Shown here piece by piece: positions 49,166 through 61,333 of a stretch of DNA of 64,000 nt. Within the stretch, counting starts at the first letter, position 1. Every line of letters begins with the position of its first letter. The notes below the pieces were generated by a model. That model was not told where the DNA came from and did not search any database. It saw only the letters and a program-made list of their open reading frames with translations. Both the position numbers and the translations under genes were made by a program. Location of the stretch: NCBI GenBank assembly GCA_963717645.1, contig CAVQWQ010000015.1, positions 66,766 to 130,765 of the forward strand, written 5' to 3'. This stretch comes from an uncultured Actinomycetes bacterium. Its GTDB lineage: Bacteria > Actinomycetota > Acidimicrobiia > Acidimicrobiales > AC-9.

Positions 49166-50566
49166 ATGACCAAGCCCCGGAGCGCCTCCGTCTACTGCCG
49201 GATCTCCCGTGACCGCGACGGCGAGGGCCTCGGCGTGGCTCGCCAGGAGAAGGACGCCCAGGAGTGGGCCGCTCGCCACGGGTGGACCATCGCCGAGGTC
49301 TACGTCGACGACGACATCTCGGCCTACAACGGCAAGCACAGGCCCGCCTACCGTCAGCTGCTCAGCGACATCGCCGAGGGGCGGCGCGACGGCCTGATCG
49401 CCTGGCACCCCGACCGATTGACCCGCCGACCCACCGAGCTTGAGGAGTTGGTCGAGGTGGTGGAGGGAACCGGGGTGCCCATCGGCACCGTCACCGCCGG
49501 CGACATCGACCTGGCCACCCCCAGCGGCCGCATGACGGCCCGTATCCTCGGCTCGGTGGCCCGCCATGAGTCCGAGCACAAGGCCGAGCGCATCGCCCGC
49601 AAGCACCGCGAACTGGCCGAGGTCGGCAAGGTCTCCGGTGGCGGTCGCAGGGCCTTCGGCTACAAGGCGGGCGGGATGGAGATCGAGCCCGCCGAGGCCC
49701 GCCTCATCGAGGAGGCCGCCGAGCGGACGCTCGCCGGCGAGGCGCTCCGCTCGGTCGTGGCCGACTGGAACCGCCGAGGCGTCAAGACCGTGACCGGGGC
49801 CCAGTGGTCGGCCACAACCCTGCGGCGACTGCTGCGCTCGGGGCGCATCTCCGGTCAGCGCGAGCACCACGACCGCATCATGGGCACGGCGGCCTGGCCC
49901 GCCATCATCGACCCGGCCACTACGTGGCGCCTGCGGGCCGTGATCGACGACCCAGCCCGCTCAGGGCGTCACCGCGGGGAGAGCGACTACGTCCTCGCCG
50001 GGCTGATGCGCTGCGGTGCCTGTGGCACGACCCTCACTTCCCACCAAGCCTCGAGGAAGGGTCGGACCGTGCGCCGCTACCACTGCATGGCCGACCGCGG
50101 TGGGTGCAATGGCGTCGGCATCATCGCCGCCCCCGTCGAGGAGTTGGTCACCGAGGCGGTCCTCACCCGACTGGACAGCCCAGCCCTGCGTAAGGCCGTG
50201 GCTCGGCGCTCCAAGCCCCGCAACGGGGCCGAGAAGGCCCTACGGGCCCTGGAGGCCAAGGAGGCCGAGCTCGGCGAGATGTGGGCCGGCGGTGAGATCA
50301 CCCGCGCCGCCTGGTCGGCGGCCAGGGACCGGCTGGCCCGCGACATCGAAGCGGCCCGGTCGGCCACCAGCGGACAGGTCCGCGAGGAGACTGCCGCCTC
50401 CCTCATGGGCAAGGGCGCCGACCTCCGCAAGCGCTGGGATCGTCTCCCCACCGAGACGAAGCGGACCATCATTTCCACCGTGGTGGAAGCAGTCACCATC
50501 GCCCCCACCACAAAGGCGGTCAACCGCTTCGACGAGGGCCGGGTCAGCGTCCTCTGGAGGGCCTAG
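49166..50566 (+). CDS. Large serine recombinase (integrase)
   Basis: YCRIS catalytic Ser, YVDDDISA, RPAY, DRLTR, recombinase domain, Zn ribbon CGAC...C...C, coiled coil. Confidence 0.95.
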   Translation: MTKPRSASVYCRISRDRDGEGLGVARQEKDAQEWAARHGWTIAEVYVDDDISAYNGKHRPAYRQLLSDIAEGRRDGLIAWHPDRLTRRPTELEELVEVVEGTGVPIGTVTAGDIDLATPSGRMTARILGSVARHESEHKAERIARKHRELAEVGKVSGGGRRAFGYKAGGMEIEPAEARLIEEAAERTLAGEALRSVVADWNRRGVKTVTGAQWSATTLRRLLRSGRISGQREHHDRIMGTAAWPAIIDPATTWRLRAVIDDPARSGRHRGESDYVLAGLMRCGACGTTLTSHQASRKGRTVRRYHCMADRGGCNGVGIIAAPVEELVTEAVLTRLDSPALRKAVARRSKPRNGAEKALRALEAKEAELGEMWAGGEITRAAWSAARDRLARDIEAARSATSGQVREETAASLMGKGADLRKRWDRLPTETKRTIISTVVEAVTIAPTTKAVNRFDEGRVSVLWRA

Positions 50567-50861
50567 CCCGCTCCCGCCGGTACGCGTCCCGCTCACCCTC
50601 CGTCGTCCCGCCCCACACGCCGGCCAGGTTCTCGTCGGCCAGCGCGTAGTCGAGGCACTCCTCGCGTACCAGGCACGACTCGCAGACCCTCCGCAGGGCG
50701 CCGACGTCGTCGCCACGGTCGGGAACGAAGCGGAGGGACGGGTGCTCGCGGCAGAGAGCGTCACGCAACCACGCCGGCCGGCCAAGAAGCTGCTCCAGCG
50801 TCCGGGGCTCGGACGCCCACGGCGCCCGGCCAAAGACCGCGCCACCCACATCGAGGGCCAC
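50544..50861 (-). CDS. WhiB-family Fe-S transcription factor
   Basis: W..DALC...CESCLVREEC...GVWGG, four Cys. Confidence 0.9.
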   Translation of the reverse strand: MALDVGGAVFGRAPWASEPRTLEQLLGRPAWLRDALCREHPSLRFVPDRGDDVGALRRVCESCLVREECLDYALADENLAGVWGGTTEGERDAYRRERARPSRGR

Positions 50862-51790: not shown

Positions 51791-52270
51791 TCATTCGTGA
51801 TCTTGGTGGGGCACATCGGCGTGGGTCGTACCACCGGAATCTCCGTGTTTGGTGGCGAACTTCCCATCGGTATGCGCGGCGTAGTCAGTGTGGGGGCCGG
51901 CTACGCCGCTACTCCCGTCAGCGTGTTGCACGTCCGCGTGGTCGGTGTGCGGCACAACCCGGATGTTGCTGTCGTGGTGGTCGGCGTGGCTATCGACGTG
52001 ACCCCCGTGGCTGTCGGAGTGGCTGTCGATGTGACCTCCGTGGCTGTCGCCGTGGGGCGAGTCGCTGTGAGCGGCGTCGAGGTGGTCGGTGTGGCTGCTC
52101 GCATCGCTATGGTCGCTGTGGGCGGTGTCCGTGTGGACGGCGCCGGCGTTGCCACCGCCGCAGGCGCCGGCGATCGCGGGCAGAGACACAGCGGCAGGCA
52201 GGGCCATACCGGCCCGTAACAGCTCGCGGCGGGAGAACTGGCGCTGGCGCTCTTGGCGTTCCTCGTCCAC
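51791..52270 (-). CDS. Tat-type lipoprotein with His-X-Asp repeats (copy 1)
   Basis: AGGGAGG RBS and GTG 52270; FSRRELL twin-Arg, AGAC lipobox, 20 HxD triads. Confidence 0.8.
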   Translation of the reverse strand: MDEERQERQRQFSRRELLRAGMALPAAVSLPAIAGACGGGNAGAVHTDTAHSDHSDASSHTDHLDAAHSDSPHGDSHGGHIDSHSDSHGGHVDSHADHHDSNIRVVPHTDHADVQHADGSSGVAGPHTDYAAHTDGKFATKHGDSGGTTHADVPHQDHE

Positions 52271-52538
52271 AACCGCCGCCTCCCTTTGACTTTGAGACGA
52301 GGGCAGCGTACGCCCGGCGGCCGGCGTAAGCAGGAACTTGCCGCCGCCTTGTCGGGGGTTTGGCTCTTCTGCGCGTAACCCGATCCGCCGTCCGCCGGTC
52401 ATGACGGGATCGAACGTCGCAGGGGCATTCAATCTGCTCTTTGCAGCCAAGCAAGGAGGGACTGGCGTGCCAGGAGTCTCGACCACACCGGAGAACACCG
52501 TGGCCTTCCCGGCGCACCCCCACTTCGACCACATCGAT

Positions 52539-52790
52539 CTGGCTCACTGGCCATGACGCGAGAGGACGCCATGCGGCTGCTCGGCGACCTAGGGGAGGTG
52601 CAGGGCCGTCTTGACCGGCTCTCTGACGGCCTCCGGGCCTTGCTTGCCGACGACGAGGCCTAGCCCAAGCGCGGCTCCGCTCTTCGCCCGAGCGGAACCC
52701 CCCAACGCCGGACGCCCGGCTGCAATGGCGGGACAGGCTCGAGGCGTCCTTTCGCAAGTGTGCGCCTCCGGTCGCCACTTGTCGATCCCC
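52539..52790 (+). repeat. Repeat A, copy 1 (contains ORF 52553-52663, MTREDAMRLLGDLGEVQGRLDRLSDGLRALLADDEA)
   Basis: Aligns by eye with 53639-53896 and 55428-55558. Confidence 0.85.
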
Positions 52791-52927
52791 TGGGTGAGGC
52801 GGGCCAGCTCACAACTGAGGGCCCTTTCGGCAGCGGGTCAAAAGAGCGATCTGACCTCCCGCGAGCGGGTAGTGCAGGGACCTCGGGGCGACGGCGAGTA
52901 GCCCCCGCGTTGAGATAACTCAGGTCT

Positions 52928-53428
52928 CTAGCCAGACACGTTGACGTTTCCTTGGACGTTTGTGACGGTGAGATGGAAGGTGCGGGTTTGGCCTTGGGCT
53001 GTGGCCACGCAGTCGAAGGTCTCACCGGGCGACTTGAGAATGATGTTCTGGCTCCCGCAGTTCACATTGGCATCCACCTGAAGCTGCGCGCTGATTTGTT
53101 GCTTGAGACGGCTCGCAGCGGTCGATGCGACGATTACGGCCTTCGTTGGCTGGGCCTCGAACTGTGAACCTGAGGTGAAGACCACATTGAAAGGGACCTC
53201 TTGTCCACCGACGTTCGCCTGGCATTGGAACGTGGCCCCCGCCTTAGCTTGAGCGCCGGAGGGACATGTGACCTTGACGTCGTTGGTGTTCAAGGTCGTC
53301 TTGATCTTGGCCGTCACCTGGTTCTGGACTTGGCTGCTGGGGCTGCCGCCGCCGCCACAGGCGTCCAGGGCTATGACCAAGCCAAGCGGTGCAATCCCGA
53401 AGAGCCAGCGCCGGGATATCAGAGCCAT
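52928..53428 (-). CDS. DUF4333-like lipoprotein (two Cys-paired beta repeats)
   Basis: SRRWLF signal, LDAC lipobox, VTCP...GATFQC and VNCG...GETFDC repeats. Confidence 0.75.
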   Translation of the reverse strand: MALISRRWLFGIAPLGLVIALDACGGGGSPSSQVQNQVTAKIKTTLNTNDVKVTCPSGAQAKAGATFQCQANVGGQEVPFNVVFTSGSQFEAQPTKAVIVASTAASRLKQQISAQLQVDANVNCGSQNIILKSPGETFDCVATAQGQTRTFHLTVTNVQGNVNVSG

Positions 53429-53484
53429 CACACGTTCCCCCCCAAGTAGTCCTTCGGCTGAGCCGTGACAGGCTAGCGAGCTAG

Positions 53485-53763
53485 ATGGGGCCCTGTCGGG
53501 CGGGGCAGCAGAGCCAGGCGGATGACTTGCACCCGCCGCCCCACCCACGGCATCGAGCCCTGCACACCAGTCGCCTTCGGCACGTTCTAAACACAGCGTC
53601 CTCGGAACAGCTGCGTCGGTCCATCGCCATGCTCCAGCCTGGCTCACTGGCGATGAAGCGAGAAGACGCGATGCGACTGCTCAGTGAGTTGGGCGAGGTC
53701 CGCGGGCGCCTCGACCAGCTGCGCCACGGGCTCCTGGCCCTGCTCGGCGAGGAGGATCGCTAG
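53485..53763 (+). CDS. Small helical hypothetical protein, most complete copy of the repeat-A peptide; start uncertain
   Basis: EQLRRSIAMLQPGSLAMKREDAMRLLSELGEVRGRLDQLRHGL; reading frame and stop position conserved across three copies. Confidence 0.6.
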   Translation: MGPCRAGQQSQADDLHPPPHPRHRALHTSRLRHVLNTASSEQLRRSIAMLQPGSLAMKREDAMRLLSELGEVRGRLDQLRHGLLALLGEEDR

Positions 53764-53896
53764 GACCTCAAGCGCGGCTCGCCCCGCCGAGAGCAGAGCC
53801 GCCCCAACACCGGACGCCAGGCCTGACCGGCCGGATCAAGGCGCCTGTGCGTCCGTACCGTCAGCGTGCGCCTCCGGTCGCTACCTGTCGATCCCC
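53639..53896 (+). repeat. Repeat A, copy 2
   Basis: Shares the CTGGCTCACTGGC start, the peptide frame, the hairpin and a 31-bp distal block (29/31 identical) with copy 1. Confidence 0.85.
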
Positions 53897-54185
53897 CGTC
53901 TCACCGCGATGCCTGGTGGGAACAGCCGTGGGGGATGCTTCCCCAATTGCCGCTAGGGGTCTCCCCGAGTAGGGTGACCTCTGGACGGGACCGACCAGCC
54001 GACTGTGGCTTGGTGAGCCGACCGATTGGCCTCCGCCCAGGGGTAGTCCGGCCCCGGTGAGGAGCGAGGTTGTGCCCGGGTAGGAGGCCCCCCGAGAAAA
54101 GGGGTCGACACCGGGCCCCGAGCGGCGGACACGGGACAGTTTGGCTCGGGGGGATCACGGCCCTCCCCGAGCTGCCTGGCTAGTT

Positions 54186-54400
54186 CGCTCAAAAGGAGGG
54201 CGGCTCAACGGGGTGGGATCGGCGGAACGAATCACCCCGGAGCCGCCCACCTCAACGGGCGCTCGGGAGGGCCGACCGATGGTGGGGGCGAGCCAGGCCA
54301 CCGACCGGCCCACCTGAGCGTCACCTCAGCGCGCTCAGGAGGGCGGCTCACGGGCAGGGGCACCACACCCTGTCCGGAGCCACCCACCTCAGCGGGCGGA
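54186..54400. repeat. Repeat B, copies 1 and 2 (hairpins)
   Basis: CGCTCA(AAA)GGAGGGCGGCTC-variable inner stem-GAGCCRCCCACCTCARCGGGCG. Confidence 0.8.
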
Positions 54401-54585
54401 CTGACATGGCCACTCAGTGACCCAGAGGCGGCCACCGTCACCCGCGGTGCGGCGGGTAACGGCAACCAAGAAGAGAAACCCAATCACGCGCACCTCCTCT
54501 CATAGAAAGTGTCCCTCCAGCGTGGGCTCAGAGCACGGGCCGAACGGCACTTAGCGCGGGCCGCGAGCCCGAGCGAGCATGACGA

Positions 54586-54768
54586 CTAACCACCAAGGGC
54601 TCGGCGGGCGAGGATCGCCCTGCGCTGTCCAGCCGTCTTGCCGCCCCATATCCCCAGCCGCTCACGGCGCTGCAGAGCGTGGTCGAGACACTGCTGGCGC
54701 ACCAAGCACTGTTCGCACACCGCCCCGAAGCGGCCATTGCGGCGGATGCCTGCTTGCCGTAGCGTCAA
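54586..54768 (-). pseudogene. WhiB-family gene, probably N-terminally truncated
   Basis: CEQCLVRQQC...GIWGG present, but the first Cys and the upstream Trp are absent. Confidence 0.65.
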
Positions 54769-54818
54769 TGGTCGTCGCCGCTGTGGCGGGGCTTGCGTGA
54801 AGCGAGAAGGGGGTCGCC

Positions 54819-55133
54819 ATGCAGTTCGTAATCGTGGCAGAGCACTCGCCAGAGTCCTGCCCTACGTCCAACAAGCAGATCCGGGACCTTATGCGTGAAG
54901 GCGCAAAGCAAATCCCCGATCTGGCGAAGAAGCTGGGCGTTGAGATCATCACCCTCCGGGTCCTCGGCCCCGATCACCAGTTCATCGGAGTAGTCGAGGC
55001 GGCCGACATCGAAGCTGTCAGGGACTTTCTCATGCAGAGTCGGCTCGTGCAGTTCAACACCACGACGGTGCGGGCCACCTGGAGCATGGAAGAGGCGCTC
55101 GAGAAGGTGGAGGCGCTACCAACGCTCCGATAG
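54819..55133 (+). CDS. GYD/DUF3303-like dimeric alpha+beta barrel protein
   Basis: AAGGGGG RBS; HSPESCP N-terminus, H.FIGVVEA, MEEAL. Confidence 0.65.
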   Translation: MQFVIVAEHSPESCPTSNKQIRDLMREGAKQIPDLAKKLGVEIITLRVLGPDHQFIGVVEAADIEAVRDFLMQSRLVQFNTTTVRATWSMEEALEKVEALPTLR

Positions 55134-55196
55134 CTGCCCGGGGTGGACCCGACCGAGCCCGTGGAACGACTACCGCCGCCGTCCCGCTGCCGAGGC

Positions 55197-55318
55197 GACC
55201 CGGCCCATCCGGGGCGTCAGCTGACTCGCTCAGGAGGGCGGCTCCAACGGGACCAAGGGGTATCACCAGCTCGCGCTGGAGCCCCCACCTCAACAGGCGG
55301 ACAATCGGTCGTGGCCAC
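55197..55318. repeat. Repeat B, copy 3
   Basis: GACCCGGCCCA...CGCTCAGGAGGGCGGCTC...GAGCCCCCACCTCAACAGGCGG aligns with 54303-54412. Confidence 0.8.
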
Positions 55319-55364
55319 CGCCCGCCTCATCGGAGGCTCATCCTCTTGACACTGCCAGTGTGAT

Positions 55365-55402
55365 CCGCGAGGGTCCGGTGGACCACGGGTCGAAGGGCCC
55401 CT
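55365..55402. repeat. Repeat C, copy 1
   Basis: CCGCGAGGGTCCGGTGGACCACGGGTCGAAGGGCCCCT. Confidence 0.85.
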
Positions 55403-55427
55403 CAGTAGCCAGGCCGAGGGTGGAAAA

Positions 55428-55558
55428 GAGTTAGGCGAGGTGCAGGGCCGCCTTGACCGGCTCTGTGACGGCCTCCGGGCGCTGTTTGCCGACGAGCAGG
55501 TCTAGCCCAAGTGCGGCTCCGGCCGCATTAAACGGAGCCGCCCCAGCACCGGATGCCA
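55428..55558 (+). repeat. Repeat A, copy 3 (5'-truncated, ELGEVQGRLDRLCDGLRALFADEQV*)
   Basis: Close match to the 3' half of copy 1, including the hairpin. Confidence 0.85.
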
Positions 55559-55685
55559 GAACTGGCGCTGACGAGCCTCCCCTTCTTCATCAGTTGACGA
55601 CGCGGCGGTCGGCTCGTCTAGGTCGTTACGTCCAACTGGAGTCTTCTCTCGGAGGGTGTCACCGTCCGGGCTGAGGAACGGCCGG

Positions 55686-56246
55686 TCAGTGGTCACCGTG
55701 CGCGTCGTCACCGTGGGGCGTGTCGAGGTGGGAATCGCTGTGGCTATCACCGTGGTCGGAGTGGGGACGGGAGGGCTGGTCAGTGTGGGTGGACTTCCCG
55801 GCATCAAGGTGTGAGGAGTCGCCGTGAGGGCTGCTGGCTCTGTCGCTGTGCATGGGAATAAGCGCTTCGTTGGTGTCGTAGTGCGGCGTGTCCACGTGTG
55901 GGGTGTCCGTATGGTGCGCGTCCGAATGTGCAGAGTCGCCGTGGCCGGTGTCCGCGTGGTTCGAGTCCGTGTGGATCGAATCACCGTGAGCGGTGTCATT
56001 GTGGCTCGAGTCCTGATGATCGGCGTGGTCGGCGTGGCTGCCTGAGTCCGTGTGATCGGCGTGGCCGGCGGCGCTGCTGGTGCCGCTGCCGCAGGCTGCG
56101 GCGACCGCCGGTATCGACAGCACGACCGGTACAGCCATGCCGGCTCGCAGGATCTCCCGCCGGGAGAACTGCCGCTGGCGAGTGGCGCGCTCCTCGTCGT
56201 CTGAGGACCGCCGGCCGGGCTCGCCCCGGTCGTCAGGATGATCCAT
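55686..56246 (-). CDS. Tat-type lipoprotein with His-X-Asp repeats (copy 2)
   Basis: FSRREIL twin-Arg, AAAC lipobox, 24 HxD triads; GAGG RBS. Confidence 0.82.
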   Translation of the reverse strand: MDHPDDRGEPGRRSSDDEERATRQRQFSRREILRAGMAVPVVLSIPAVAAACGSGTSSAAGHADHTDSGSHADHADHQDSSHNDTAHGDSIHTDSNHADTGHGDSAHSDAHHTDTPHVDTPHYDTNEALIPMHSDRASSPHGDSSHLDAGKSTHTDQPSRPHSDHGDSHSDSHLDTPHGDDAHGDH

Positions 56247-56528: not shown

Positions 56529-56900
56529 ATGACCACGGGGATCGCAGGAATGGCGGCAGCGCTTCTGCCTCTCGAAGGCGACATGAGCTGGCGAGGAGAC
56601 GGCGCCTGTCGTTGGTACCCGACGGATTGGTGGTTGCCCGTGAGCAAGCAGGCGAGCGCCGTGGCTCTCTATATCTGCGAGACGTGCCCGGTCCTGCTTG
56701 AGTGCATGGACTACGGCCTAGCCCACCCGTCTCTCCACGGCGTGTGGGGAGGGCTCACTGAGTACCAGCGCCACCGGATCCGGGGTGGGAAGGACCGCAA
56801 CCACCACGAGGAAGCACGGCGGAAGATCGAGCTACGAACCGAACGAAGGCGGCGGACCCGGCGAGCGACCACGAGCACGAGTGGAAGTGGGAGGGCGTAG
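56529..56900 (+). CDS. WhiB-family Fe-S transcription factor
   Basis: WRGDGAC...CETCPVLLEC...GVWGGLTE, Arg-rich tail; GGAGG RBS. Confidence 0.9.
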   Translation: MTTGIAGMAAALLPLEGDMSWRGDGACRWYPTDWWLPVSKQASAVALYICETCPVLLECMDYGLAHPSLHGVWGGLTEYQRHRIRGGKDRNHHEEARRKIELRTERRRRTRRATTSTSGSGRA

Positions 56901-59777: not shown

Positions 59778-60575
59778 TCAGTAGACACCGCCAGAGTCGG
59801 GATCAAAGGGCCAGCTCTTTCGGACTTTGCGAGGCACCATGTCCGGGCCGACGACGACCTTAAAGCCCTCGGGATGACCGGGCGGGCCGATGACGCGGTT
59901 GCCGAAGACGCCGGTGTGGAGACCGGGGCTCGGGTCGTCGCGGTACTCGTGCACGCCACCAGAGTGCTGGGCGGCGTGTTCGGGCGAGCCGGGGGCGTGG
60001 TACGGACCGAGCTTGACGTGCAGATAGACGCTGAGCATCAGCGCCACGACCATATCGTCGTGTTGCGTCCTGGCGTCATTGCTGCAGGTGGTACCTGTCG
60101 CAGTTGTGTCGTACGAGTAGCCCTTGAGCTCGTCGGTCAAGGTGGCGAGGTCCGCGAGTGCGGGCGCCGCGTGCAGCGTATGGTTCTGGAGCTCCACCGA
60201 CAGGCTGCCCACGAGGTCCTGCTTCGGCGCTGTCCAGCGGCCGTACCGGGTGGTGGCGTTGGACCCCGCGGTGATGGTGACGCCGATCGGGCTCGGCCTC
60301 AGCTTGCGGGTGGCCATCTCGACCACCGGCCCGCCCAAGCCTGTCGCGTCGATCGCGACCTGCACCCCGCCGTCGAGGTTGGGCTCGCCGTAGTGAGACC
60401 CGAGGCGGTCGATGATGCCCTGGAGGCGGTGGAGTTGTGCGTCGTAGGACTCACCCAGCGGGAAGCGCTGTGCCACACGGATGTCGAGTTGACCGCGCTG
60501 GCGGTCGATCACGATCGCGGCGCTCGGGTCATGGCTCTGCCCGACGTCCACACCACACAACCAGCGAGCGCTCAC
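59778..60575 (-). CDS. Terminase large subunit nuclease (RNase H-like) domain as a separate gene
   Basis: GVDVGQSHDPSA, IDATGLG, HDDMVVAL; GTGA overlap with the ATPase gene. Confidence 0.8.
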   Translation of the reverse strand: MSARWLCGVDVGQSHDPSAAIVIDRQRGQLDIRVAQRFPLGESYDAQLHRLQGIIDRLGSHYGEPNLDGGVQVAIDATGLGGPVVEMATRKLRPSPIGVTITAGSNATTRYGRWTAPKQDLVGSLSVELQNHTLHAAPALADLATLTDELKGYSYDTTATGTTCSNDARTQHDDMVVALMLSVYLHVKLGPYHAPGSPEHAAQHSGGVHEYRDDPSPGLHTGVFGNRVIGPPGHPEGFKVVVGPDMVPRKVRKSWPFDPDSGGVY

Positions 60576-61333
60576 AGCGGCGTTACCTCCGGGTCGAGGA
60601 TGGCGTCCACCAGTTCGGGCGGGAAGACGGCGCCCTCGGCGGCACCGAAGGTGACCTCGTACTCGGCGGCGAATCGCAGCGCCGGCATGGTGCGGCGGGC
60701 CTCCTCGATGCGCTCAGGCGTGATGCGGCCACACTCCGAGGCGGTGACCTTGATCTTCATGTAGGGCTCGGTGGACGACCACGTCAGCCAGAACCAGCCC
60801 CGCATGCCGTTGGGCGTCGACAACCCGATCAGTCGACCGCCCGTGGCTCCCAGCATCGGAAGGACGGCGTGGACGAGGGAGTCGGTGACGAATCCGGCCT
60901 CGTCGAGAATCACGAGGTGCGGGCTGTAGCCACGGATGGTCGTCTCGCTCGAGGGCAAGGAGAGGATGCGGCTGCCGTTCTGGAGCCTCAAGGACAGGAT
61001 GGACTCGCTGACGGGTCGCGTGCTGGCCACCTGTGGTTGGCTGGCCAGCGGCGTGAGCAGCTCGCGGACGCGGCCGAAGACCTCGCTCGACTGGCGCTGA
61101 CTCGGGCTGACCAGCAACGTCAACGACTTCTCGACGGTCAAGGCCTGGTCCAAGGACATGGCGGCCGCGACAGTCGACTTGCCCACCTGCCGGGCGCATC
61201 GCACCAGTGCTCGCGATGGGCGCTCGGTCAGTAGCCTCGCTTGCCACTCGTCGGGCTCGAGGCCGCTCGCCCTCATGATGTCGAGGGGGCTGGGCGGCGG
61301 GGCGAAGCGGCGGGCGAGGGAGGCGTCGGTCAT
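60572..61333 (-). CDS. Terminase large subunit ATPase domain as a separate gene
   Basis: PDEWQ, Walker A ARQVGKST, IRG, Walker B VILDEA, coupling motif STPNG, AEY. Confidence 0.88.
   Translation of the reverse strand: MTDASLARRFAPPPSPLDIMRASGLEPDEWQARLLTERPSRALVRCARQVGKSTVAAAMSLDQALTVEKSLTLLVSPSQRQSSEVFGRVRELLTPLASQPQVASTRPVSESILSLRLQNGSRILSLPSSETTIRGYSPHLVILDEAGFVTDSLVHAVLPMLGATGGRLIGLSTPNGMRGWFWLTWSSTEPYMKIKVTASECGRITPERIEEARRTMPALRFAAEYEVTFGAAEGAVFPPELVDAILDPEVTPL

Follow-up and report, generated by a model that had tools for sequence, protein, structure and literature searches.

Two minus-strand genes whose products consist largely of His-x-Asp triads (HxD) lie in a 64,000-nucleotide stretch of DNA from an uncultured bacterium of the Acidimicrobiales (contig CAVQWQ010000015.1, C15 below; the whole stretch, at its full length, is referred to as the window). 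Unless a contig is named, positions are window coordinates, and the term triad denotes His-x-Asp throughout. The two genes and their immediate upstream signal are as follows:

51791-52270, minus strand: HxD-1, precursor of a 159-residue twin-arginine-like lipoprotein with 20 triads (open reading frame, triad count and shuffles)
52279-52284, minus strand: hexamer GGGAGG resembling a ribosome-binding site, 8 nucleotides upstream of the HxD-1 GTG (read from the sequence)
55686-56246, minus strand: HxD-2, precursor of a 186-residue twin-arginine-like lipoprotein with 24 triads (open reading frame, GAGG before the ATG, homologues)

The longest frame of HxD-1 runs from 51791 to 52534, and the GTG at 52270, with GGGAGG ahead of it, is the likelier start and gives the 159-residue product. 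BLASTP aligned the two proteins over their leaders and repeat parts with 80 identities in 174 columns (46%, E 3e-32), and as both frames are intact, HxD-1 and HxD-2 are genuine paralogous repeat-protein genes. Counted from the lipobox Cys, the mature part of HxD-1 has 123 residues with 20 triads and that of HxD-2 has 135 residues with 24. Composition-preserving shuffles (5000 per protein) gave a mean of 3.9 and a maximum of 10 triads for HxD-1, and a mean of 4.8 and a maximum of 12 for HxD-2. Every Asp of the HxD-1 repeat part (20/20) and all except one in HxD-2 (24/25) sit inside a triad; the repeat parts are 19-20% His and 16-19% Asp, acidic and nearly devoid of Lys and Arg. No named family in Pfam or NCBIfam matched either protein, the sole Pfam signal being a sub-threshold TAT_signal match in HxD-1, and PADLOC and the Hxs models (TIGR03979, TIGR03977 and TIGR03978) gave no specific match. 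The initial annotation, made from the letters of the stretch, had described two paralogous HxD-repeat open reading frames (ORFs) with a common leader and mature parts of ~120-135 residues holding 20 or 24 triads, and had recognised no named family; these measurements bear it out. The stretch is present in nine soil DNA runs from three studies, and no RNA run is among those containing it, which is evidence neither way.

Both leaders read F-S-R-R-E-[LI]-L-R-A-G and continue into a hydrophobic stretch of ~17 residues, followed by the cleavage-site sequences A-G-A-C and A-A-A-C. The label of Tat-type (twin-arginine translocation) lipoprotein, given in the same annotation, is one of motifs; Pfam TAT_signal scored HxD-1 at 17.1 bits (cut-off 22.7) and did not match HxD-2. 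Judged by these motifs, the HxD proteins may be Tat substrates with a lipobox. The genome encodes two TatC proteins (PF00902), one Lgt (PF01790) and one LspA (PF01252), all above cut-off. The lipobox Cys is kept in members of the family from Acidimicrobiia, and a cleavage site of the A-x-A(-Q) type takes its place in members from Gram-negative bacteria.

The genome of the window (G000; 4.44 Mb in 39 contigs, 97% complete, 7.6% contamination) holds five intact HxD genes and one C-terminal fragment. C15 has two of these genes, C29 has one as well as the fragment, and C8 and C10 have one each. The copy on C10 lies in the chromosome and adjoins genes for a cation diffusion facilitator (CDF) transporter, an extracytoplasmic function sigma factor and other housekeeping proteins. 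The C8 copy is the last gene of a co-directional, overlapping series that begins with a WhiB-like gene and a PknB-like kinase gene and continues with an enzyme of the SPASM-type radical S-adenosylmethionine (SAM) class and a partner protein:

C8:67653-68891: radical SAM/SPASM enzyme, 412 residues (Pfam Radical_SAM, 2.1e-13)
C8:67653-70467: enzyme-partner core, comprising the radical SAM enzyme and the 534-residue partner
C8:70460-70990: HxD gene of the cassette, directly after the core

[quoted passage not shown] The candidate maturase pair was found on C8, beside a third paralogue, and comparative genomics (this cassette and its linkage in the genus and across phyla) supports the RiPP-like hypothesis. 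The same genome also contains, at C2:30012-30518 (minus strand), a leaderless His-rich ORF with repeated C-G-H and H-x-D/H-x-H elements that is unrelated to the HxD lipoproteins.

The radical SAM enzyme and its partner are each single-copy in the genome. Among 30 sequences the enzyme has invariant C12, C16 and C19 (CX3CX2C) as well as C241, C246, C266, C300, C303, C309, C313 and C329; these eight further Cys include CX2CX5CX3C and make up a full SPASM complement, a pattern by which the linked enzyme is assigned to the radical SAM/SPASM class. Its best-scoring families are the cyclophane-forming maturases AmcB, YhhB, GrrM/OscB, XyeB and FxsB, together with DynA and the anaerobic sulfatase maturase (74 bits, cut-off 349), and the closest solved structures are the anaerobic sulfatase-maturating enzyme anSME (4K36, 2.8e-13) and the triceptide synthase ChlB (6e-8). 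A C-terminal run of His-Gly-Asp triads is seen in 81 of the enzyme's 120 best homologues (P0016-P0135). The last 170 residues of the partner form a class I SAM methyltransferase domain, preceded by an N-terminal domain of unknown fold, and C175, C176, H232, C235 and C239 are invariant. The AlphaFold model of the partner reached a mean predicted local distance difference test (pLDDT) score of 87, and the N-terminal domain modelled alone reached 83; Foldseek matched the whole model to methyltransferases only and returned no PDB match at E<=0.001 for the N-terminal domain. DUF483 (13-20% in ESM Atlas clusters) was tried as an identity for this domain and rejected, as Pfam did not confirm it and the literature held nothing relevant. 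A predicted complex of the radical SAM enzyme, partner residues 32-362 and HxD-2 residues 14-110 scored 0.02; it was run without controls and is used neither way.

The linkage of the three genes is conserved. Within the genus, seven of eight genomes have all three in the order radical SAM enzyme, partner, HxD, on one contig or, in G003, on two contig ends; the eighth (G001, 83% complete) lacks HxD gene, enzyme and partner alike. In 93 genomes from other genera, the HxD profile found no more than two matches, both short and weak. The radical SAM family extends much further and shows unusual conservation: of the 8000 candidates scored, 2537 reached E<=1e-20, and the 120 best are 65-91% identical. 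Scanning species-representative genomes with the radical SAM enzyme alone yielded 44 loci in Acidimicrobiia, Cyanobacteria, Rokubacteria, Planctomycetota, Vicinamibacterales and other Acidobacteriota, Chloroflexota, several Proteobacteria and one Nitrososphaeraceae archaeon. The partner follows the enzyme in 42 of them, and the other two loci end at or in the enzyme gene; the two are fused in one open frame in L076, L080, L081 and L082, and in about seven loci the partner has no methyltransferase domain.

An H-x-[DE]-dense ORF stands beside the pair in 27 of the 44 loci, or in ~30 when short precursor-like ORFs with 1-3 triads are counted (L062, 43 residues, and L065, 41 residues, each from leader motif to stop; L091, 89 residues). 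As a control, we counted frames with at least three HxD per 30 residues and found 36 at distances of up to 1.5 kb from the pair (120,554 bp in all) versus 3 further out (337,184 bp), a ~30-fold enrichment per base over the flanks. The linked HxD proteins range from 41-43 residues (leader motif to stop) up to 505 residues with 84 triads, and most of them share the leader motif [RK]-x-[RKQ]-x-F-[ST]-R-R-x-L-[LI]-x-A-G-[WM]. In two Acidimicrobiaceae, the gene after the cassette (L069:9684-12881 and L075:9657-12884) encodes a ~1070-residue protein with an FAD_binding_4 domain and a hydrophobic C-terminal part, which are flanked by HxD and related repeats.

Other neighbours were surveyed in 201 ORFs of at least 100 residues within 3 kb of the 44 loci (two sets, greedy pick, leaving out ORFs with at least six HxD triads or more than 800 residues). 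The commonest families were further Radical_SAM proteins (8), NTP_transf_5 (5) and Sulfotransfer_3 (4), none of them consistent. Some loci carry HExxH, 2-oxoglutarate (2OG) oxygenase, nucleotidyltransferase or sulfotransferase genes, kinds known from peptide-modification clusters. Conserved metal transporters beside the cassette were sought and discounted: VIT1 occurred once in the 201 ORFs, and no cation-efflux family was among the 25 families listed per set. A conserved protein with an HExxH motif lies beside the cassette in L071 (9796-10668), L076 (6153-7001), L080 (2496-3305) and L081 (9783-11375); these loci have no HxD-dense ORF except L081, where the HExxH protein is fused to a 2OG-Fe(II) oxygenase domain, and in them the system may have branched off towards some other substrate.

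The triad itself was analysed in 45 family proteins, five of them from the genome of the window; at some loci the frame was picked by most HxD, a slight bias to the motif. His occupies position i-2 for 1111 of 1259 Asp, and Asp occupies i+2 for 1111 of 1182 His. HxE occurs just 3 times versus 1111 HxD, and Ser stands at i+2 of His in 6 of 1182 cases. Tyr is the sole residue besides His that is enriched at i-2 (17 cases, 2.1-fold), and the middle position is free to vary. An enzyme recognising aromatic-x-Asp would be expected to leave such a pattern, in which Asp is strict, an aromatic first residue is tolerated and the residue between them is unconstrained. Because Glu is nearly excluded, enzyme specificity fits better than plain chelation, which should tolerate Glu.

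A word-indexed search of 5.8 billion proteins with the HxD proteins returned 15 relatives only, all metagenomic, in which leader and triads are kept; the two most distant have an A-x-A type cleavage site in place of the lipobox Cys. A profile search of 1.84 billion representatives of 50% identity clusters returned 709 at E<=0.001, of which 191 reached E<=1e-10. Among 141 newly listed relatives, 60 have at most 330 residues (49 with the leader motif) and 81 are longer (1 with the leader motif); when nine long relatives were scanned, eight had no Pfam domain and one had the Ig-like domain He_PIG only. P0136, P0139 and P0142, leaderless proteins of 592-1256 residues with dozens of H-x-D/H-x-N triads and no Pfam domain, are perhaps repeat proteins of a class of their own. 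In an alignment of 18 family sequences every invariant column is H or D, and the near-invariant columns are mostly triad H/D or the leader residues R23, F27, R29, R30, L33, G36 and P40, in agreement with the earlier observation on the two paralogues that leader and triads are kept and other positions vary. Searches with HxD-2 gave no tblastn match in 50,697 phage records and none in viral contigs; a metagenome scan found one short contig, L109.

On the basis of these comparisons of sequence and of gene order among metagenome-assembled genomes, we estimate a probability of roughly 0.6 that the HxD proteins are substrates of the radical SAM-partner pair, and likewise that the window genes encode orphan substrates which would be modified at their triads in the cytoplasm and then exported and lipid-anchored. 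A radical SAM-based modification of the triads is predicted. Its likeliest form would be a carbon-carbon cross-link between the imidazole ring and the Asp beta-carbon, as introduced by triceptide synthases on HAA, HNR and HTK, for which cross-links from His C2 to the C-beta of X3 on H-x-X motifs are established (PMC11499958). Even if the substrate role is granted, we put such a ring-to-C-beta cross-link at somewhat short of an even chance. A methyl-derived or carbon-adding change as in HxsA, which gains 8 Da on an S-H-R-S-S motif (PMC13128918), would be the alternative, and the methyltransferase domain of the partner could contribute to it. The twin-arginine-like leader would then send the modified chain through Tat, and the lipobox Cys would be acylated and the leader cut off. 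An array of 20-24 modified imidazole/carboxylate units would then stay anchored in the membrane on the side of the cell wall, and it could bind divalent metal ions or form an envelope barrier. The other hypothesis of the initial annotation, a metal sponge exported through Tat, may thus describe what the mature product does. Export and lipidation are placed after modification because the same logic operates in MNIO-modified DAG-RiPPs and in HxsA, both of which offer precedents for maturation before export (PMC13128918 for the radical SAM-dependent HxsA, PMC13056109 for lipobox-bearing DAG-RiPPs).

Several observations weigh against this interpretation. The radical SAM enzyme scores far below the cut-off of every named family (bits/cut-off: AmcB 79/425, YhhB 59/445, GrrM/OscB 49/310, XyeB 42/450, FxsB 39/370), so that cyclophane chemistry is an analogy. 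About 14 of the 44 pairs have no HxD ORF beside them, and the enzyme may therefore have other substrates. The C-terminus of the enzyme carries two or more HxD triads in 81 of the 120 best homologues, and this could mean that HxD is a metal-binding tail instead of a substrate motif; the tail may be a self-substrate, a pseudo-substrate or a metal-binding appendage. The CDF transporter gene on C10 and a VIT1 transporter gene on C8 adjoin HxD genes, as would fit a plain metal role. As to export, the Tat assignment is one of motifs, with the Pfam model below cut-off in one copy and absent in the other. The lipobox position -3 is usually Leu, Val or Ile, and here it is Ala. Moreover, the cassette-linked HxD proteins of L069, L075, L077, L078 and L081 have no leader motif, and those of L077, L078 and L081 read as having no signal peptide.

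The surroundings of the window genes are prophage-like, in line with the mobile-element location proposed initially, and include the following features:

49166-50566, plus strand: large serine recombinase (integrase), bordering the prophage-like region (Pfam Resolvase, Recombinase, Zn_ribbon_recom)
50544-50861, minus strand: WhiB-like regulator (Pfam Whib, 5.2e-16)
52553-52663, plus strand: 36-residue small ORF, also present at 53653-53763 (plus strand) and as a remnant ending at 55505 (plus strand) (repeat families D2 and D4; translations)
52928-53428, minus strand: DUF4333 lipoprotein, between both HxD genes (Pfam DUF4333, 8.4e-17)
54586-54768, minus strand: short WhiB-like ORF covering only the domain's C-terminal half (Pfam Whib, 1.3e-12, profile positions 28-65)
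55558-55591, minus strand: truncated third HxD leader with no repeat part behind it (repeat family D5 with both intact leaders; frame 55502-55999)
56529-56900, plus strand: WhiB-like regulator, divergent from HxD-2 (Pfam Whib, 5.8e-15)
59778-61333, minus strand: terminase large subunit in two adjacent frames, ATPase part at 60572-61333 and nuclease part at 59778-60575

HxD-1 and HxD-2 lie 1.2 and 5.1 kb, respectively, from the integrase gene, on whose upstream side chromosomal genes follow (a class A penicillin-binding protein and an ATP-binding cassette transporter). The G+C content is 0.69-0.74 over most of the first 50 kb (one bin 0.66) and 0.65-0.67 at 52-60 kb, and no tRNA was detected in the window. 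The terminase matches Pfam Terminase_6N (3.3e-8) and Terminase_6C (0.0035) and is 43% identical to the TerL of a Thermus phage; no single frame reads through 59778-61333. The two parts may be genes in their own right, or a frameshift may have split one gene as the prophage decays. The pair on C15 and the C29 gene with its fragment lie in two related regions that share WhiB, terminase and small ORFs; both regions are prophage-like, with terminase, serine integrase and WhiB genes across the two. From this gene content the region appears to be a mosaic prophage or prophage remnant. Since three of the five intact HxD genes thus reside on phage-like elements without a maturase, they would depend on the single enzyme pair of the host.

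The small ORFs recur with lipoprotein genes. The 36-residue family has a further copy on C29, and each copy in the window has a lipoprotein gene of the minus strand next to it (those of HxD-1, the DUF4333 protein and HxD-2); the repeats flanking them are 74-89% identical, as if lipoprotein cargo were swapped at a repeated module. Recombination probably left the truncated leader at 55558-55591 as a scar. Among several low-depth joints in contigs from soil DNA, one that occurs in two runs connects 52664 to 55506, skipping 2841 nucleotides. The joint falls at two 89%-identical repeat copies and, at low depth and with sides of 32 nucleotides, gives only a hint of recombination between repeats and of population variants without the segment of the DUF4333 gene and the WhiB fragment. 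On C29, a 100% identical inverted duplication of ~1.2 kb (327117-328349 and 330009-331382) flanks a terminase-like gene.

Could the triads simply bind metal? In that case HxD-1 and HxD-2 would be unmodified Tat-exported lipoproteins that serve as a surface buffer or scavenger for Ni, Zn, Co, Cu or Fe, and the radical SAM pair would be unrelated or co-regulated. The high His and Asp content would suit such proteins, as would the CDF efflux gene beside the C10 copy and the VIT1 gene near the C8 copy. Metallochaperones with His-rich tails are known, and the tail of the radical SAM enzyme resembles them. At a spacing of i, i+2 both side chains point to the same side of an extended chain, an arrangement shared by the His-x-Asp of 2-His-1-carboxylate iron sites. 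This likeness to iron sites (cf. PMC12912966) is a further point in its favour. However, plain metal binding leaves unexplained the linkage to the enzyme-partner pair, which is kept across phyla with the enrichment over flanks given above, the existence of short precursor-like forms with 1-5 triads, the near absence of Glu in place of Asp and the scarcity of metal-transporter neighbours in the census, and we regard it as rather unlikely. Still less probable, to the point of being very doubtful, is that the genes are low-complexity ORFs without a function, which decay along with the degraded prophage that carries them. The mosaic region does contain a truncated leader remnant, a truncated WhiB gene and repeated small ORFs, and its G+C content drops relative to most of the window upstream of 50 kb; yet both HxD frames are intact and have motifs resembling ribosome-binding sites, leader and every triad position are kept in the 18 aligned family members where other positions vary, and the family spans 709 clusters at 50% identity.

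The prophage setting raises another possibility, namely that the mature product is an antiphage or superinfection-exclusion effector of the envelope, analogous to HxsA, with which a prophage would protect its lysogen by means of the host's maturation enzymes. Three of the five intact copies and the fragment sit in the two related prophage-like regions, the window copies lie close to the integrase gene, and HxsA itself depends on maturation by radical SAM enzymes, works in the periplasm and keeps phage DNA from entering (PMC13128918). Against this stand the absence of matches above cut-off to the Hxs families TIGR03979, TIGR03977 and TIGR03978, with generic PADLOC hits only, the absence of an HxD gene from the 50,697 phage records and the viral contigs, and the chromosomal position of the cassette copy on C8 and of the C10 copy. 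The DNA binding proposed for HxsA relies, moreover, on basic repeats; those of the HxD proteins are acidic and nearly free of Lys and Arg. We consider this role improbable on present evidence, but given the HXS analogy superinfection exclusion may be worth testing. A bolder combination would have a pan-phylum radical SAM enzyme and its novel-fold partner cross-link HxD arrays, and temperate phages of Acidimicrobiia carry orphan substrates that coat the lysogen membrane and exclude phages or capture metals; the prophage-borne coat would then correspond to the HXS defence system in an acidic version with Tat/lipobox. Taken jointly, these steps make for a speculative and unlikely whole.

We therefore return to the reading of the HxD proteins as substrates of the enzyme pair, under which the HxD genes in the window are probably spare, prophage-carried targets of a widespread, undescribed enzyme system. 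If this is true, a large radical SAM system would extend across many phyla and one archaeon, with substrates from ~40-residue peptides to 500-residue proteins bearing more than 80 modification sites, among the densest arrays of post-translational modification known. It would extend His-based cyclophane chemistry to Asp, add a radical SAM example to the new class of RiPP-protein hybrids with signal peptide or lipobox, and supply a partner domain without a solved relative. Through the prophage-borne orphan copies, a connection with conflict between phage and host could be put to the test, with the HXS system published in 2026 as the model.

Among known systems, triceptides resemble the HxD cassette in that a radical SAM/SPASM enzyme without a recognisable N-terminal recognition domain is encoded beside a precursor with aromatic-x-X triads (PMC11499958, PMC12912966), and in that His is accepted as the first residue (HAA, HNR and HTK; HAS in MicA) (PMC11499958, PMC12912966). 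The enzymes compared were HaaB, YhhB, HtkB, ChlB, XyeB, GrrM/OscB and FxsB; the best hidden Markov model and PDB relatives of the radical SAM enzyme belong to this group and to anSME, and the triad-dense ORF beside the maturase, found in 27 of 44 loci (~30 with short forms), is what a triceptide precursor would look like. By contrast, the enzyme falls below the curated cut-off of every named cyclophane-forming family, the third residue is strictly Asp, and up to 84 triads are carried by proteins of up to ~500 residues instead of a short peptide. The leader is Tat/lipobox-like, a partner of unknown fold is obligatory, and the cross-link in the HxD proteins is a predicted one.

The anaerobic sulfatase-maturating enzymes, which include the solved structure closest by sequence (4K36), are also of the radical SAM/SPASM type and modify whole signal-peptide-bearing proteins before export. 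Their reaction, however, converts a single Cys or Ser to formylglycine in a folded enzyme, with no repeat array and no need of a partner. The ZnuE, ZnuF, ZnuG and CmrA proteins of Corynebacterium diphtheriae are secreted actinobacterial proteins with His-x-Asp in a zinc site (PMC12445094), but there a folded domain of ~150 residues has a single HxD and a single HxH at its two ends, with no tandem array and no radical SAM enzyme. With this different architecture, the Corynebacterium HxD/HxH zinc motif was set aside as an explanation.

In the HXS system an exported His-x-X repeat protein is likewise matured by cytoplasmic radical SAM enzymes before its role in the envelope (PMC13128918). HXS has the paired radical SAM proteins HxsB and HxsC plus HxsD, whereas the cassette described here has one radical SAM/SPASM enzyme and a partner with a Cys/His cluster. 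HxsA combines five basic repeats with a peptidoglycan-binding domain, as opposed to 20-24 acidic repeats with a lipobox in HxD-1 and HxD-2. Its model, TIGR03979, gave no match at any HxD locus and none above cut-off, TIGR03977 had no match at C8, and TIGR03978 (HxsB) gave the C8 radical SAM enzyme 21 bits against a cut-off of 370. In addition, HXS is 99.7% confined to Pseudomonadota (PMC13128918), in contrast to a system present in Acidimicrobiia and many other phyla. PADLOC 2.0 returned only generic matches (viperin-type radical SAM, 7.7e-12; mad2 methyltransferase, 3.2e-8; PD-T4-6, 0.003).

DAG-RiPPs and bufferins share with the predicted HxD pathway a modification in the cytoplasm and a leader that is a genuine secretion or lipoprotein signal, and their products are membrane-bound or periplasmic, some of them metallophores (PMC13056109, PMC11626156). 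There an MNIO (DUF692) enzyme acts on Cys, and here a radical SAM/SPASM enzyme is paired with His-x-Asp; no DUF692 was among the 25 families listed per set for the 201 neighbour ORFs, and the cassette consists of the radical SAM enzyme and a partner with a methyltransferase domain. The HxD leaders also carry a twin-arginine motif, and PMC13056109 contains neither the word "Tat" nor "twin-arginine". We found no paper linking an HxD-repeat protein to a radical SAM enzyme, and published similarity networks, such as those of PMC11499958, may already contain the enzyme cluster. Judged by its genes, then, the HxD system is a member of none of the triceptides, HXS and DAG-RiPPs, although these are its closest counterparts, and by analogy with them it would work as a triceptide- or HXS-type maturation with a DAG-RiPP-like exit.

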